Shown: positions 5,483 to 20,280 of the stretch, piece by piece
Numbering within the stretch: the first letter of the stretch is position 1
Layout of the letters: the number at the start of each line of letters is the position of its first letter
Origin: Acidimicrobiia bacterium
Lineage (GTDB): Bacteria; Actinomycetota; Acidimicrobiia; Spongiisociales; Spongiisociaceae
Assembly: GCA_011523395.1 (NCBI GenBank)
Contig: WTGW01000041.1
Coordinates: 1 to 60,252 of the forward strand
Length of the DNA: 60,252 bases
Direction: 5' to 3'
Translations under genes and position numbers: made by a program
The notes under the pieces: model-generated
The model's input: the letters and a program-made list of their open reading frames with translations, nothing else
Told to the model about the DNA's origin: nothing
Databases searched by the model: none

Positions 5483-6571
5483 TCAGGAGCGGCGGCGGCG
5501 CAGCACCAGGTCGAGATCCTCTACGAAACGACGGTTCTCGGATTCGGTTCCTATGGACACGCGGGTCCATTCCTCGGTGCCCTTGCGGATGAGCGTTCCC
5601 ATCTCCAGGAGTTCCTGGACTATCCCCGGGGTACCGGCGCCGAGGCGCAACCAGATGAAGTTGGCCTGGGTGGGAACGTAACGGATGCCCCGGTCGGACA
5701 GGGCGCCCTCGAGGTATTCGACTCCCCGGCGGTTGAGCTCGAACCGTTCCCTCACCCGCTCGGGGAAACGCAGGGCGGTAGTGGCGGCCACCTCGGCCAG
5801 GGAACCGACCACGAACGGGCTCTGGGCCTTGCGGAGAGACCGGAGGGTGGGGGCCTGGCCGACCATGTAACCGACGCGGAGGCCCGCCAGCCCGTAGATC
5901 TTGGAAAAGGTGCGGGCCACCACCACGTTGGGACGTTCTACGGCGAGGGGGACGATGCTGGACTCCTCCTCGGCTGCCACGAACTCTCCGTAGGCCTCGT
6001 CCACCAGCACCAGGACCGACTCGGGAACCCGATCGGCGAACTCGTGGATCTCCGCTCGGGTCACGTAGCTCCCCGTTGGGTTGTTCGGGTTGCATACGAT
6101 CACGAGGGTGGTGTCGTCCCGGATCGCCCCGTACAAGGCCCCGAGGTCAACCCGGTGGGCTTCGTCGAGCGGGACCATGATGCTCTCCGCATCGGCGTAC
6201 ACCGCGTTGATGGGGTACATGGCGAACGAGGGCCACGGGTAGACGATGCTGGTCCCCTGGCCTCCCAAAGCCCGGGCCGTCGTGGTGAGGTTCTCCGAGC
6301 TGCCAGCGCCGGGCCACACACAGTCCGGGGTGATGCCCAGCGTCTCGGCCAGGGCCTCTCTCAGGCGGGCCGTGCCCTCGTCCGGGTACCGGTTGATGCC
6401 TGTGGCGGCGCCGGCGATAGCGTCCAGAACCTCGGGAAAGGGAGGAGTCGGGTACTCGTTGCCGGCCAGCATGGCAATCCCTCTGGCGCCGAAACGGTGG
6501 GCGAACTCCTCGAAGCCCGGGCCGCCGTCGTAGGGAACGAGGTCATCGATGGCGGCTCGTATGCGGACCAC
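5483..6571 (-). CDS. histidinol-phosphate/aromatic aminotransferase (class II, HisC family)
   Basis: NPNNPTG motif, PLP-lysine context FSKIYGLAGLRVGY, and RYPD. It is not in a his operon, so substrate is uncertain. Confidence 0.85.
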   Translation of the reverse strand: MVRIRAAIDDLVPYDGGPGFEEFAHRFGARGIAMLAGNEYPTPPFPEVLDAIAGAATGINRYPDEGTARLREALAETLGITPDCVWPGAGSSENLTTTARALGGQGTSIVYPWPSFAMYPINAVYADAESIMVPLDEAHRVDLGALYGAIRDDTTLVIVCNPNNPTGSYVTRAEIHEFADRVPESVLVLVDEAYGEFVAAEEESSIVPLAVERPNVVVARTFSKIYGLAGLRVGYMVGQAPTLRSLRKAQSPFVVGSLAEVAATTALRFPERVRERFELNRRGVEYLEGALSDRGIRYVPTQANFIWLRLGAGTPGIVQELLEMGTLIRKGTEEWTRVSIGTESENRRFVEDLDLVLRRRRS

Positions 6572-15859: not shown

Positions 15860-17905
15860 ATGGCGCTGCTGAGGGACCTGCCGCTCGAGGGGTTGTCCCC
15901 TTACCTGATCCAGCACCGGGACAACCCGGTCGACTGGCACCCATGGGGAGAGGAGGCCTTCGAGGCCGCCAAGACCGCGGACCGCCCGATCCTGCTCTCG
16001 GTCGGATACTCGACCTGCCATTGGTGCCACGTCATGGAGCGGGAGTCCTTCCACGACCATGCAACGGCCGATTTCATGAACCGGCATTTCGTATCGGTCA
16101 AGGTTGACCGCGAGGAACGACCCGACGTGGACTCCATATACATGGACGCGGTCCACACCATGACCGGGCGGGGCGGCTGGCCCATGACCGTGTTCCTGAC
16201 GCCCGGCGGCCGCCCGTTCTTCGCCGGGACGTATTTCCCCGATGTGGACCGCCACGGCATGCCGAGCTTCCGCCGCGTGCTGGAGGCGATCGAGCACGCC
16301 TGGCGGAACAGACGGAAAGACGTGCGGGAACAGGCGGACCAGCTGACCGGGGCGATCGGGCTCGCCCTCCCACCCGCCGAGGACCTGCCCGGCCGGGGCC
16401 GGGTGAGCGCCGCCTACGAGACCCTCTCCCGGCAGTTCGACCTGCAACACGGCGGCTTCGGCGGCGCCCCCAAGTTCCCCCAGGCGCCGATCCTGGAGTT
16501 CCTGGCCAGGATCAGCGGCCTCGCCACGGCGACCAAGGCCAAGCCGATGCTCACCACCACGCTGACCCGCATGGCGCGGGGCGGCATCCGGGATCACCTG
16601 GGCGGCGGGTTCGCCCGCTACTCCGTGGATCGGGTCTGGCTGGTGCCCCACTTCGAGAAGATGCTCTACGACAACGCCGACCTGGCCCGCCTGTACGTCC
16701 GTGCGTGGCAGATCACCGGTGCCCCGTTCTACCGGGAGGTGGCGGTCGACACCCTGGGGTACATGTTGCGCGACCTCGCCCATCCCGGGGGCGGGTTCTT
16801 CGCGGCGGAGGATGCCGACTCCGAAGGCGTGGAGGGCAAGTTCTACGTATTCGATCACGAGGAGTTCCACGAAGTGGTCGGCCCGGACGACGGGTCCGTG
16901 GCCGCCGCCTACTTCGGGGTGTCCCCGGGCGGGAACTTCGAAGGCGCCAACATCCTCTACGAGGCCGTCACCGTGCCGGAAGTGGCGGCACGGTTCGGCG
17001 CCCGGGTGGAGGAGGTCGAGGGCGCGATCGGGCGAGCCAAGGAGAGCCTGCTGGCTCGCCGGAGCACGAGGATCCGGCCCGGCCTGGACCACAAGATCAT
17101 CACCGTGTGGAACGGCTTCGCGCTCCGGGCGCTGGCGGTGGCGGGCGCGGTGCTGGGGACAGGGGCCTACCTGGAGGCGGCCCGGGCGAACGCCCGGTTC
17201 GTCCTAGGCGAGATGCGCCGCCCCGACGGGCGCCTGGCGCGGGTCTGGAGCAACGGTCTGGCGCCGATTCCGGGATTCCTGGAGGACCACGCGTCGTACG
17301 CCCTCGGGCTTCTGGAGCTCTACCAGGCCACGGGCGAGGTCGAGTGGTTCGTGGCCGCCCGCGAGCTGGTCGACCTGCTGGAGGAGCACTTCGGCGGCCC
17401 GACCGGGGTGGTGTTCGCCAGCGCCGCCGACGCCTCCCACCTGGTGGTCCGGCCCTCAGACCAGCAGGACAACCCGAGCGCCTCGGGAGCGTCGCTGGCG
17501 GCGGAGTGCTACTTACTGCTCGGTCATCTCACCGGGGACTACCGGTATCACGAGTGCTTCGAGCAGATCGTCCGGGCCGGTGACCGGCTCCTCGAAGCGG
17601 CCCCGTCCGCGGCCGGTCACCTGCTGGCGGCGCTGGCCACGTCCCAGATGGGCATTCGGGAGGTGGCCATGACCGGCCCTCGCGCCCTGGAGTGGGCCGG
17701 CCGGCTCGCCGGCGCCTACCGGCCCGACCTGGTGTTGGCCCCGTCCCCGGGTCCTGGCGAAGAGGTTCCGGTGGTGGCCGGCCGCCACCGGGAGGGCGAG
17801 ACCCTCGGCTATGTCTGCGAGCGGGGCGCCTGCCGGATGCCGGTCGGATCCTACGCCGAGCTGGAGGTCCAGGTAGCTGGGAAGGGCTACGATCGACCCT
17901 CGTGA
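15860..17905 (+). CDS. thioredoxin domain-containing protein (DUF255/YyaL family)
   Basis: [44 protein letters not shown], followed by a long alpha/alpha-toroid-like C-terminal region. Confidence 0.9.
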
Positions 17906-18849
17906 TACACGAGAACGCCCTCGACGCCATCGGCTGGACACCCCTGGTCCGGCTGGCCCGACTCCATCCACCGGGGAACCTGGTGGCCAAGCTGGACTAC
18001 CTGAACCCGGCCGGGTCGGTCAAGGAGCGGATCGCGGTCAACATGATCGACCACGCCGAGCGGCAGGGGTTGCTGGGTCCGGGAGGGACGATCATCGAAC
18101 CGACATCGGGGAACACCGGGGCCGGCCTGGCCATGGTCGGGGCGGTCCGGGGGTACCGGGTGATATGCACGGTTCCCGACAAGGTGGCGACCGAGAAGAT
18201 CCGCTTGCTCGAGGCGTACGGAGCGGAGGTCATCGTCACCCCTACCAACCTGCTCCCGGAGGACGAGGACTCCTACTACGGAGTCGCCCGCCGCCTGACC
18301 GAGGAGATCGACGGCGCCTTCAGCCCCGACCAGTACTCCAACCCCTTCAACCCGGAGGCCCACTACCTGACGACCGGTCCGGAGCTGTGGGAGCAGACCG
18401 GCGGTGAGATCGACGTGTTCGTGGCCGGGGTGGGCACCGGCGGGACGATCTCGGGGACGGGACGGTACTTGCGGGAGCGCAAGCCGTCGGTGGAGCTGGT
18501 GGGGGCCGACCCGGAGGGATCGATATACACGGCCGCCCGCGAAGAGGACATCCACCAGTACCGGGTGGAGGGCGTAGGGGAGGATTTCTGGCCCGAGACC
18601 CTGGACCAGGACATCGTCGACCGGTACATCATGGTCGACGACCAGCAGTCGTTCGACATGGCGCGGCGGGTGGCCGAGTGCGAAGGGGTGCTGATCGGCG
18701 GCTCCGGGGGCATGGCCGTACACGCCGCCCTCGAGGTGGCGGAGGAGGACACCGGCCGCCTGGTCGTGGTACTGCTGCCCGACTCGGGGCGGGGCTACCT
18801 GTCGAAGATCTGGGACGAGGAGTGGCTGGCCGAGCACGGCCTTGAGTGA
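17902..18849 (+). CDS. PLP-dependent cysteine synthase / cystathionine beta-synthase-like enzyme (no CBS domains)
   Basis: The GTG start overlaps the upstream TGA (GTGA). Motifs are SVKERIA (PLP Lys), [12 protein letters not shown] and [10 protein letters not shown]. Confidence 0.9.
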
Positions 18850-18876
18850 GCGGCTCGGCAATTGCCGCTCCTGAGT

Positions 18877-18914
18877 AGAAAAGAGGCCGGGGCCCCGATC
18901 ATGGGGCCCCGGCC
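18877..18914 (-). terminator. intrinsic terminator (12-bp GC stem, T-tract on the minus strand), possibly bidirectional
   Basis: GGCCGGGGCCCC-GATCAT-GGGGCCCCGGCC. On the minus strand it is followed by TCTTTTCT. It also lies 36 nt after the plus-strand cysteine-synthase stop. Confidence 0.65.
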
Positions 18915-19160
18915 TACGTTCGAGAATCCAGAATGCCTACCCGTTCTTCATCGTGAGATCCTTAGCCTCACTCGATGCCGCATGAGGACCGGCATGCGGA
19001 CGGGAAAGCCCGGTGGTCCGAGTTGGAGTCGCCACCGGACCGGCGGTCACGCCCAAGGCGCGGCCACCGGAAGCGACCCGTGGCCGCTAGCGCTCGGCCA
19101 CCTCCAGGGTCCTACTAGAACTGTCTAACAAGTCGGATCACCTCCTTTCTCTGGTAGGCG
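18877..19160 (-). ncRNA. candidate ~280-nt transcript with perfect extended SD, 14-codon mini-ORF and a structured GC-rich body
   Basis: AGAAAGGAGGTGATCC (minus, 19135-19150), a TTG 9 nt after GGAGG, the ORF MLDSSSRTLEVAER-stop (19087-19131), hairpins such as CCGGTGGCGA...TCGGACCACCGG, then the terminator above. No family recognised. Confidence 0.35.
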
Positions 19161-19356
19161 CCAATTTAGCGGCCCGTTGTGCATGAGAGGTGCATGACGG
19201 GCCCGGCGATCGCGGGCGGGACCTTCCCGAGGACCCCAGCCCGCAGGCGACGACCGGCCAACCTCAGGCTCACAACGTCACACACGGTGCCGTGAACCTC
19301 AGGAACAGGCCACCTAATGTGACGCCCTCCGCCTCAAGAACCGCCCAGGTGCCAAA

Positions 19357-19606
19357 ACTCGCGAAAAACCGGTGCTCCGCACCGGGCCCCCTCCCCCGCC
19401 ACCACCCATCCTGTGGGAGCGTGGTCGGCCATGCCCGGATGGATGCCGGGAATCGGCCCTCGCTCCATAAGCCTTTGATGTTCCCTCGGGCCGGCCGTTC
19501 CGATCGGTTATCAACGCATCGGCCGGTATCGGTGCTTAGCGATAGGCAATATATACCAGGGGTGTGACAGGTCCAAGCCCCTTCCGCCAGTCCGCGAAAA
19601 AACCCC
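19357..19606. repeat. intergenic repeat family, copy 3
   Basis: Bounded by CGCGAAAA at 19360 and 19593. On the minus strand it carries a TATATT box, the CCGGCCG...CGGCCGG hairpin, the G-tract GGGTGGTGGCGGGGGAGGGG and CCGGTGC-GGA-GCACCGG-TTTTT. Confidence 0.85.
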
Positions 19607-19674
19607 CGGAAACCGAGGGCGCCTGGCTGCTAGTCACAACCTCCGGGTGGCTTGCCCGGGACGGGTAACCGGAA

Positions 19675-20280
19675 TCAGAGGGCGTCCGCCAGGGCGCCCC
19701 AGAGGTCGGCTACGGCGGAGCCCAGCCCTCCCAGCGCCCAGCGCAGGACCAGCGCCACCACGGCTACCCCGGCGGCGGCGAAGATCATCCGGAGCCGGTA
19801 GGTGATCGTCTCCTCGCTGTCCTCCAGGTAGGAAGGATTGGCGACCGGCGCCCGGGCCATGGCGCGCCGGCGCCCGAGCGATTGCCTGGCGGCCGAGATC
19901 AGCTTCGTCCCGGGCAACTCGGGTAGCTCGAGAGGCTCGCTCCCCGGATGAGTCGCGAGATCCGGCTCCTCCAACTCGACGATCTCGATGTCGTACAGGG
20001 TGTCCTCGTCCAGCCCGGCCTCGGGCTCGGGTGGCGGCGACAGCAGCCTGTGCTCGTCGACCCGCCGCAGGGCTTCCTCCAGGAGAGGCATCGGCAACTT
20101 CAGCGCGGCGGACACATCCACCAGCTCATCGCTGTCAGGGATGGCGGAGCCCTTTTCCCAGCCGACCACCACCTCGATCGGCCGACCGGTTCGGGTGGCG
20201 ATGTCCACCACGGAGACATCCATCTCCTCGCGGCGCTTCGCGAACAGGCGGGCGAACGCCAGCCCTCCGTCCGGAGACAT
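19675..20280 (-). CDS. XRE-type HTH protein with C-terminal TM helix (RodZ/anti-sigma-like topology)
   Basis: N-terminal HTH-like segment (VVDIATRTGRPIEVVVGWEKGSAIP), an acidic linker, and the C-terminal helix IFAAAGVAVVALVLRWALGGL. ATGA overlap with the upstream gene. Confidence 0.6.
   Translation of the reverse strand: MSPDGGLAFARLFAKRREEMDVSVVDIATRTGRPIEVVVGWEKGSAIPDSDELVDVSAALKLPMPLLEEALRRVDEHRLLSPPPEPEAGLDEDTLYDIEIVELEEPDLATHPGSEPLELPELPGTKLISAARQSLGRRRAMARAPVANPSYLEDSEETITYRLRMIFAAAGVAVVALVLRWALGGLGSAVADLWGALADAL

Follow-up and report, generated by a model that had tools for sequence, protein, structure and literature searches.

The window analysed here is a stretch of 60,252 nucleotides from an Acidimicrobiia bacterium (assembly GCA_011523395.1, contig WTGW01000041.1), and our subject is a small element on the minus strand of its intergenic gap 18850-19674, where a repeat-bearing hairpin (19171-19203) is followed by a putative promoter, a 16-nt complement of the 16S rRNA 3' tail (19135-19150), a 14-codon reading frame (19087-19131), a structured region and a terminator (18877-18915). 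An initial annotation, made from the letters of the sequence, had described this gap as free of any credible open reading frame (ORF) and as the site of a discrete ~280-nt minus-strand unit with an extreme Shine-Dalgarno sequence (SD), a mini-ORF and its own terminator. Both descriptions hold: none of the mechanical ORFs in 18862-19567 matches Pfam, and their frames are broken by insertions and deletions relative to L102, a locus from an unclassified metagenome-assembled genome (MAG), and the unit is homologous to a small RNA (sRNA) family for which transcripts and ribosome footprints are reported. The nearest relatives are L102 and L116, the latter from an Acidimicrobiaceae MAG, which makes a deep-branching actinomycetote the probable host. 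We assign the unit with near certainty to the Ms_IGR-5 family (Rfam RF02471), an sRNA of Actinobacteria, as a divergent member. The whole predicted RNA measures ~279 nt (18877-19155, minus strand), as delimited by two covariance-model alignments, the terminator and conservation in L102, and a shorter form of ~220 nt, ending near 18930 past the family-type 3' stem, is possible.

This assignment was obtained below the usual threshold. At the curated gathering thresholds, the Rfam scan of the window returned no RNA family and no tRNA, and in E-value mode RF02471 was the best match, aligning full-length over 18972-19155 (minus strand) with 23.0 bits and an E-value of 0.0063. The gathering cut-off of RF02471 is 45 bits; it is missed by the window and by L102 and passed by L116 (54 bits) and by a second relative, L047 (50 bits). 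We also built a covariance model, R1, from 50 diverse members, leaving out the window and its near-twin L102; those members that were sampled reach 54-190 bits on RF02471. R1 has a sole match in the 60 kb, at 18950-19155 (minus strand), with 58.8 bits and an E-value of 7e-12, and it scores 59.3 bits on L102; the window aligns to it with high posterior probability over its 5' two-thirds and poorly over its 3' third. Among the tested loci that had been retrieved with a motif taken from the window, 12 of 18 were RF02471 at 50-190 bits. A weaker Rfam match, to RF01867 (CC2171), reached 19.4 bits against a cut-off of 75 and skipped 106 model positions, its alignment being confined to the 5' GAAAGGAGGUGAUCC and the terminator with the central domain unmatched. 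The initial annotation had allowed that the segment might turn out to be a fragment of a larger known element; a known element was indeed found, and it is present here whole.

Ms_IGR-5, also named IGR-5 or ncMSMEG15794c in Mycobacterium smegmatis and SLIV_16488 in Streptomyces lividans, shares with the window unit the 5' sequence ACxxxGGAAAGGAGGUG(G/A)UCCGA, a mini-ORF ending in GAGGUGGC...CGCUAG, a GGCGAAUCC-type motif, a long-range helix, a hairpin with a GUCC loop and a terminal stem, and both are stand-alone intergenic units. All the family parts (SD, ORF, loop pairing, closing helix, motif and outer stem) could be placed in the window. The two differ in that the ORF has 14 codons in the window and 12 in Ms_IGR-5, ending in CUGGAGGUGGCCGAG instead of GUGAGGUGGCUGCC, and in that the window SD is a perfect Watson-Crick 16-mer whereas most Ms_IGR-5 members have G-U pairs at 1-3 positions. 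The window unit further carries an internal anti-SD and a second canonical terminator.

The SD, AGAAAGGAGGTGATCC (19135-19150, minus strand), is maximal in the sense that it is the full complement of GGAUCACCUCCUUUCU, which was taken as the 16S 3' tail, the host's own 16S 3' tail lying outside the window. Its exact match is unique in the window and was reached in 0 of 100 dinucleotide-preserving shuffles, in line with the earlier statement that such a 16-mer is unexpected by chance. When up to 3 mismatches are allowed, 0.56 chance matches are expected, so that only the exact or near-exact length is remarkable. The SD begins 5 nt past the predicted transcription start, A19155, and is followed by the conserved start codon. 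This start lies 7 nt downstream of a putative -10 box, TAAATT (19163-19168, minus strand), which the promoter scan did not call and which we propose from the relatives, where TAnnnT is followed after 6-7 nt by A(C)AC with the same spacing to GGAGG.

The initial annotation had suggested, as an alternative, that the plus strand carries a degenerate relic of the 16S rRNA 3' minor domain. Its TAACAAGTCGGATCACCTCCTTTCT is reminiscent of the 16S 3' end. Nevertheless, no small-subunit rRNA model matched either strand of 18700-19800 at E<=10, the TAACAAG that had seemed rRNA-like is the reverse complement of the TTG-TTA codons of the mini-ORF and is absent from relatives, and promoter, start, ORF, covarying helices and terminator are all oriented along the minus strand. 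We reject this explanation.

Relatives were collected in two ways, and ~200 were compared overall. In the first set, one genome per species was scanned for GGAGGTGRTCCGA-N15-45-GAGGTGGC-N3-9-TAG, giving at least 120 loci. As this pattern forced the presence of the SD and of TAG, the second set was drawn from metagenomes with the 3' motif GGCGAATNCNNNGCAGYCACCCGR only, which removes that bias; it comprises 85 non-redundant family copies, of which 79 were parsed. In these copies, pairing with the 16S tail, contiguous and with G-U allowed, extends over 16 nt in 69 of the 85 and over 15 nt in a further 11, with 13-15 Watson-Crick pairs among the 16 SD positions. All 79 parsed copies have a 12-codon ORF, which starts 10-12 nt past GGAGG with UUG (61 copies), AUG (16) or GUG (2) and stops at UAG (72) or UAA (7), never at UGA. 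The extreme SD and the mini-ORF that had been noticed in the window are thus conserved features of a family.

The window's own mini-ORF, MLDSSSRTLEVAER (19087-19131, minus strand), opens after GGAGG with TTG at 19131-19129 and closes after 14 codons with TAG at 19089-19087, as had been annotated; it has the family layout of an extended SD leading into a short ORF that ends GAGGUGGC-N6-UAG. Two extra codons and a second complete GGAGG within the ORF are traits of its lineage. Of the 121 loci listed for the first set, 117 have an intact frame, and the ORF has 12 codons in 95, 13 in 10 and 14 in 3, the last being the group of the window; the lengths found are 10, 12, 13, 14, 17, 19 and 20 codons, those of 17-20 codons belonging to Acidobacteriota. 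Insertions of 3 to 24 nt leave the frame intact. The interchange of canonical starts, the interchange of UAG and UAA, and insertions in multiples of three are together the signature of a frame that is read by ribosomes. UGA is the commonest stop in high-G+C actinobacteria, and its absence among the 79 copies means either that termination by RF1 matters or that the A at the second position is structural. No codon is consistently enriched, and a leader that senses an amino acid was discarded as a candidate.

A frame conserved in this way could encode a functional micropeptide, a product of 12-14 residues ending in (R/L)EVA(A/V/E)R that the SD would serve to express strongly. The conserved start, stop and frame, the nearly invariant C-terminal residues and the ribosome footprints in relatives are all in keeping with it. 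The pattern of substitution points the other way: peptide residues 2-4 vary freely, residue 5 is R, W or G while its codon keeps a fixed xGG, and substitutions at residues 10-12 (A/V/E/T/I/G) go along with compensatory ones in a 3' strand of the RNA. The conservation is therefore at the RNA level, EVA(A/V)R being kept because of the pairing constraint, and a peptide would leave ~200 nt of covarying downstream structure unexplained; we consider a functional micropeptide improbable.

The fold explains this constraint, as the reading frame of the family doubles as two structural elements of the RNA. The first is AGGACC, at codons 7-8 of the window ORF (19108-19113, minus strand) and codons 5-6 of the 12-codon form, which sequence and family covariation identify as the 5' partner of a pseudoknot and which complements the loop GGUCCU at 18985-18990 in six of six positions. 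Across the family, GGAC occurs with GUCC in 128 sequences and GGAU with AUCC in 15 of 155, mixed combinations accounting for 8, and in the 50-sequence alignment the loop-ORF pair of columns 51 and 198 is C-G in 42, U-A in 6 and U-G in 2, with no sequence unpaired. The second is the end of the mini-ORF, GGUGGCCGAG (19093-19102, minus strand), the 5' strand of a long-range closing helix whose 3' strand is CUCGGACCACC, CUCGG(A)CCACC (19012-19022, minus strand), the two forming 10 pairs with one bulged A. In the family, the ORF end GGUGGCUGCC pairs with GGCAGUCACC located 40-100 nt downstream; this helix is 95% paired, 4 of its 10 pairs are changed on both sides, and the exchanges include UGUC/GACA, UGCG/CGCA, UGCU/AGCA, CCGCG/CGCGA and CAGUA/UGCUG. 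Earlier, CCACC had been drawn into a local hairpin, CCGGTGG...CCACCGG; this pairing is probably not the main one, since the CCACC of the family pairs with GGUGG at the mini-ORF end.

Two further parts complete the core. GGCGACUCCAA (19023-19033, minus strand) is the window form of the conserved unpaired GGCGAAUCC; it aligns to GGCGAAUcC in both models with high posterior probability, the corresponding columns are at least 90% conserved in alignment A1, and it faces the stop codon within an internal loop. Downstream lies the 3' domain (18935-19009, minus strand), for which RNAfold of 18930-19012 predicts an outer stem of GCUUUCCCGU (19000-19009) with ACGGGUAGGC (18935-18944) enclosing two hairpins, 18978-18999, which bears the GGUCCU loop, and 18953-18971. 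This layout fits the terminator domain of the family, and the model alignment of the window is poor there; in the family, the outer stem is 94.8% paired and 11 of its 13 pairs are changed on both sides. Covariation was counted in the 50-sequence alignment for the long-range helix, the outer terminator stem and the loop pairing together. Jointly, the three elements have 94.3% of cells paired against 83.8% in shuffles and a covariation score of 0.340 against 0.154, a value of 0.340 being reached in 0 of 500 shuffles; in slid controls, with the 3' partners moved by 1-3 columns, the score falls to ~0.05.

Alternative pairings of the 5' region fared less well. A hairpin proposed by RNAalifold between GUCC of the SD tail and GGAC of the ORF has 5 A-C mismatches, against none for the loop pairing in the same 50 sequences, and can be no more than an alternative state. 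Occlusion of the start codon by a hairpin was dropped (median z of 0.07, such a hairpin being present in only ~14-25% of sequences), and from the 5' end through codon 4 there is no family-wide structure beyond shuffled controls. The window also carries an internal anti-SD-like stretch, GGGUCGCUUCC (19069-19079, minus strand), in the variable domain, which the minimum free energy fold pairs with the SD; in the window and L102 this duplex is worth -18.5 kcal/mol against -10.6 kcal/mol for shuffles. As a family trait, sequestration of the SD by the variable domain was rejected, because the family value equals that of shuffles (-11.9 against -11.9 kcal/mol) and only the window and L102 exceed it.

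Taken with the homology, the conserved SD, start, stop and frame, and the covariation of the helices and the loop pairing, these features lead us to favour, with somewhat better than even confidence, a stand-alone RNA on which a ribosome docks and then has to unfold the RNA core in order to translate it. The RNA would be transcribed independently, from ~19155 to 18877 of the minus strand. Over its first ~45 nt it would stay single-stranded and offer the SD to the entire free 16S 3' tail, followed by the start codon; this unstructured pad, whose length matches the span of a 30S binding site, would be a high-affinity landing site for 30S, and tight docking would probably shield the 5' end, only ~5 nt from the SD, from decay. 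The ribosome would initiate at the mini-ORF, whose translation appears most likely and whose peptide is probably not the point. Codons 7-8 (AGGACC) would be held by the loop of the 3' hairpin, the last five codons would form a strand of the closing helix, and the stop codon would lie in an internal loop opposite the GGCGAAUCC-like motif. In the geometry of the ribosome, the mRNA-channel entrance lies ~13 nt past the start codon. This is where the folded core is predicted to begin, so a docked ribosome would meet it at its entrance and, to reach the stop, would have to open both the pseudoknot and the closing helix. Because the core must open for translation, fold and translation would be coupled in cis and mutually dependent; translation would remodel the RNA, which may either report the availability of initiating ribosomes or be controlled by it.

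Several points weigh against this interpretation. The window copy misses the RF02471 threshold, and neither model aligns well with its 3' third. RNA pairing fully accounts for the conserved last five codons, which are therefore uninformative on translation, and the conservation of start and stop could reflect docking of 30S and initiator tRNA together with a structural need for UAR. Two deep-branching relatives have AUA (L047, a Conexibacteraceae MAG) and CUG (L064, an unclassified Actinomycetes MAG) at the start position, which would mean either near-cognate initiation promoted by a very strong SD or a loss of translation. In the window and L102, the internal anti-SD could hide the SD, as suggested by the modelled duplex, and the GAUCC tail of the window pairs with GGAC worse than the GGUCC of the family does. 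Finally, the evidence for a transcript and for ribosome footprints comes from relatives. As a separate observation, the frame of the AUA and CUG relatives stays open over 14-15 codons.

Some of these points would suit a ribosome decoy or non-coding riboregulator, to which we give a small but real probability. Here, the SD would bind 30S, or use it as a 5' shield, with no productive translation, and the function would be sequestration through the 16S tail or pairing of the conserved unpaired motifs with other RNAs. A complementarity of 15-16 nt is far beyond what initiation needs; over-long SDs slow the escape of ribosomes, and in Gram-positive bacteria RNAs are protected by SD-like stabilisers near the 5' end. 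The core, folded from ~13 nt past the start, could act as a roadblock, the near-cognate codons at the start position in L047 and L064 are easily accommodated, and the conserved unpaired GGCGAAUCC would be free for pairing. A decoy needs no in-frame stop, yet UAG or UAA is found in 79 of 79 copies and the frame outlasts insertions. Titration of 30S subunits would be mechanically possible, although an sRNA would be unlikely to outnumber ribosomes enough for it.

The unit ends in an additional canonical intrinsic terminator (18877-18915, minus strand), found by a terminator scan and kept in L102: the stem 18915-18884 has 13 pairs, 12 of them G-C, and is followed by CUUUUCU, which agrees with the GC-rich terminator first annotated. 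In L102 a G-C to A-U exchange is seen at the stem base. Over 2.4 kb the window and L102 are 88.5% identical, with 94-95% identity in the element and 72-86% in the remaining spacer.

Upstream, the hairpin GGCCCGT/ACGGGCC (19171-19203, minus strand), whose loop holds two copies of TCATGCAC 11 nt apart, was correctly seen from the outset and is identical in L102. It occupies the -35 position, where other family members have TTGACx-type -35 boxes and the window has none, and it is a candidate operator specific to this lineage. Further upstream, a block at 19223-19300 (minus strand) is nearly unchanged in L102 and reads AGGTTCACGGCACCGTGTGTGACGTTGTGAGCC, with an internal palindrome. Judged by sequence, both the repeat hairpin and this block resemble protein-binding sites, which would suggest regulated, not constitutive, transcription in the window lineage. 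Beyond the block, two further terminator-like hairpins lie at 19620-19602 and 19385-19369 (minus strand), with a promoter-like site at 19575-19548 between them; 19369-19620 (minus strand) may represent another small transcription unit or else a long 3' untranslated region belonging to the gene at 19675-20280. We rejected a second sRNA at 19365-19545 (minus strand), as its fold is no better than that of shuffles (z of -0.79), and insertions and deletions relative to L102 exclude a coding function.

The neighbours of the element in the window are DUF255 and PALP genes. The next gene, at 17692-18849 on the plus strand, encodes a PALP-domain protein (a pyridoxal phosphate, PLP, enzyme), is convergent with the unit and is preceded by two terminators. 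Across the ~120 loci listed, no downstream or neighbouring gene is shared between lineages, and convergent neighbours are common. Mycobacteria and Streptosporangiales have the element beside ygfZ-like, pabC-like and Rv0813c-like genes (labelled by sequence inspection, with no family search), and Nocardioides loci have ABC and MFS transporter genes in common. The neighbours thus differ between lineages and are often convergent, so the genomic context gives no functional lead. On the L102 contig, a selenocysteine tRNA (6237-6327, minus strand) lies ~1.6 kb from the element copy.

This context bears on the idea, also raised in the initial annotation, of a leader peptide attenuating a co-directional downstream gene. 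The layout of short ORF, alternative helices and terminator is similar, and some Nocardioides loci do have a co-directional MFS transporter gene ~230-290 nt past the stop. Against this, the window unit runs into its two terminators and faces the 3' end of the convergent PLP-enzyme gene, the listed loci share no gene to regulate, and no anti-terminator pairing was found. We regard attenuation as very improbable. Of the earlier interpretations, the core unit has stood, the micropeptide is left weak, the leader peptide does not fit this window, and the relic has been rejected.

As for its distribution, the first-set matches listed are nearly all from Actinomycetota, with nine from Acidobacteriota; the taxa listed include Mycobacterium, Nocardioides, Streptomyces, Actinoplanes, Saccharothrix, Kineococcus, Acidimicrobiaceae and Conexibacteraceae. 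The Acidobacteriota relatives (L003, L025, L029, L036, L045, L055, L071, L097 and L105) have the same SD, an ORF end GAGGUGGCUGAGGCUUAG and a GGCCAAUCC motif ahead of CAGCUUACC; their ORFs, of 17-20 codons, have a high content of Ser, His and Cys and begin just 7 nt past GGAGG, and the relatives score 21-27 bits both on the Rfam model and on R1. Two metagenome contigs (L141 and L229) have the 3' half of the RNA, L229 with the ORF as well, and unrelated sequence in place of the SD region; they may be copies that were rearranged or have decayed, or chimeras of the assembly.

Rfam has listed the family ever since it was discovered in M. smegmatis. RNA-seq validated the RNA in S. lividans (PMC8079986), and in S. 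avermitilis it forms a defined sRNA transcription unit whose ends have been mapped (PMC8780764); ribosome footprints lie on it in M. abscessus and M. smegmatis (PMC4974804), and IGR-5 of M. smegmatis has a +1A transcription start and was captured NAD-capped (bioRxiv 10.1101/2021.12.14.472595). The family and its status as an sRNA were therefore already known. In the literature, RF02471/Ms_IGR-5 appears only in catalogue mentions as an uncharacterised sRNA, and its anatomy (maximal SD, mini-ORF, ORF-loop pseudoknot and stop-facing motif) is not described in the searchable literature, though subscription papers may hold such a description. The present analysis extends this catalogued family into a deep-branching lineage missed by the Rfam model, and the ~200 relatives reveal a family core in which a near-maximal complement of the 16S tail is combined with a start and stop kept in frame across phyla. 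As its hosts include mycobacteria and Streptomyces, for which genetics, ribosome profiling (Ribo-seq) and cryo-EM are routine, the docking hypothesis is directly testable; if true, it would be a new bacterial way of coupling the state of an RNA to translation capacity.

Among known systems, two classes resemble parts of the window unit. Stabilising SD sequences (STAB-SD) are known from cryIIIA of Bacillus thuringiensis and from the ribosome-binding stabilisers of B. subtilis; like the window unit, they have a strong SD complement, GAAAGGAGG, only a few nucleotides from the 5' end, a position at which a bound 30S would prevent 5'-end-dependent decay. A classical STAB-SD has no start codon after it and belongs to a long mRNA leader, whereas the window unit has a start and a complete ORF and no cargo gene. 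Attenuators such as trpL, ermCL and the mycobacterial polycysteine upstream ORFs are similar in that translation of the short ORF would disrupt a helix formed by its 3' end; unlike them, the window unit lacks a downstream gene under regulation, an excess of codons for a single amino acid and a mutually exclusive terminator and anti-terminator pair.

The closest architectural likeness is to CC2171 (RF01867), an alphaproteobacterial sRNA that is expressed and uncharacterised, whose plan we read from its consensus and from four loci (L241-L244, on Methylobacterium, Azospirillum and Skermanella replicons). This RNA also begins with ..GAAAGGAGGUGAUCC, a start codon and a short ORF, and the ORF segment CAUUGUC pairs with GACAAUG just ahead of the terminator, closing a multi-stem core. 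At positions ~390-620 of the four loci, AGAAAGGAGGUGAUC is followed 7 nt later by GUG and a conserved ORF of 24-26 codons, beginning MSHCLNQ..., MSHCPSH..., MSNCSKP... and MSHCLTP.... CC2171 thus differs from the window unit in having its GUG start only 7 nt past GGAGG, a longer ORF (MSHC...) and stops that include UGA, and it has neither the GAGGUGGC nor the GGCGAAUCC motif; its likeness to Ms_IGR-5 is architectural and homology is not established. In Skermanella rosea, the CC2171 copy lies directly downstream of hflX, the gene of a ribosome-splitting GTPase. In the Acidobacteriota relatives, 3' motifs of the actinobacterial kind occur together with the 7-nt spacing and with N-termini rich in Ser, His and Cys, a mixture of traits that, from sequence comparison, hints at one wider class. 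It is a doubtful but attractive extension that Ms_IGR-5, its Acidobacteriota relatives and CC2171 form a single ancient, cross-phylum class of ribosome-docking RNAs, in which a maximal 16S-tail complement at the extreme 5' end would load a ribosome onto a mini-ORF built into a pseudoknotted core. Initiation and unwinding, and not the peptide, would then serve the cell to sense or regulate either its free-ribosome capacity or RF1-type termination.

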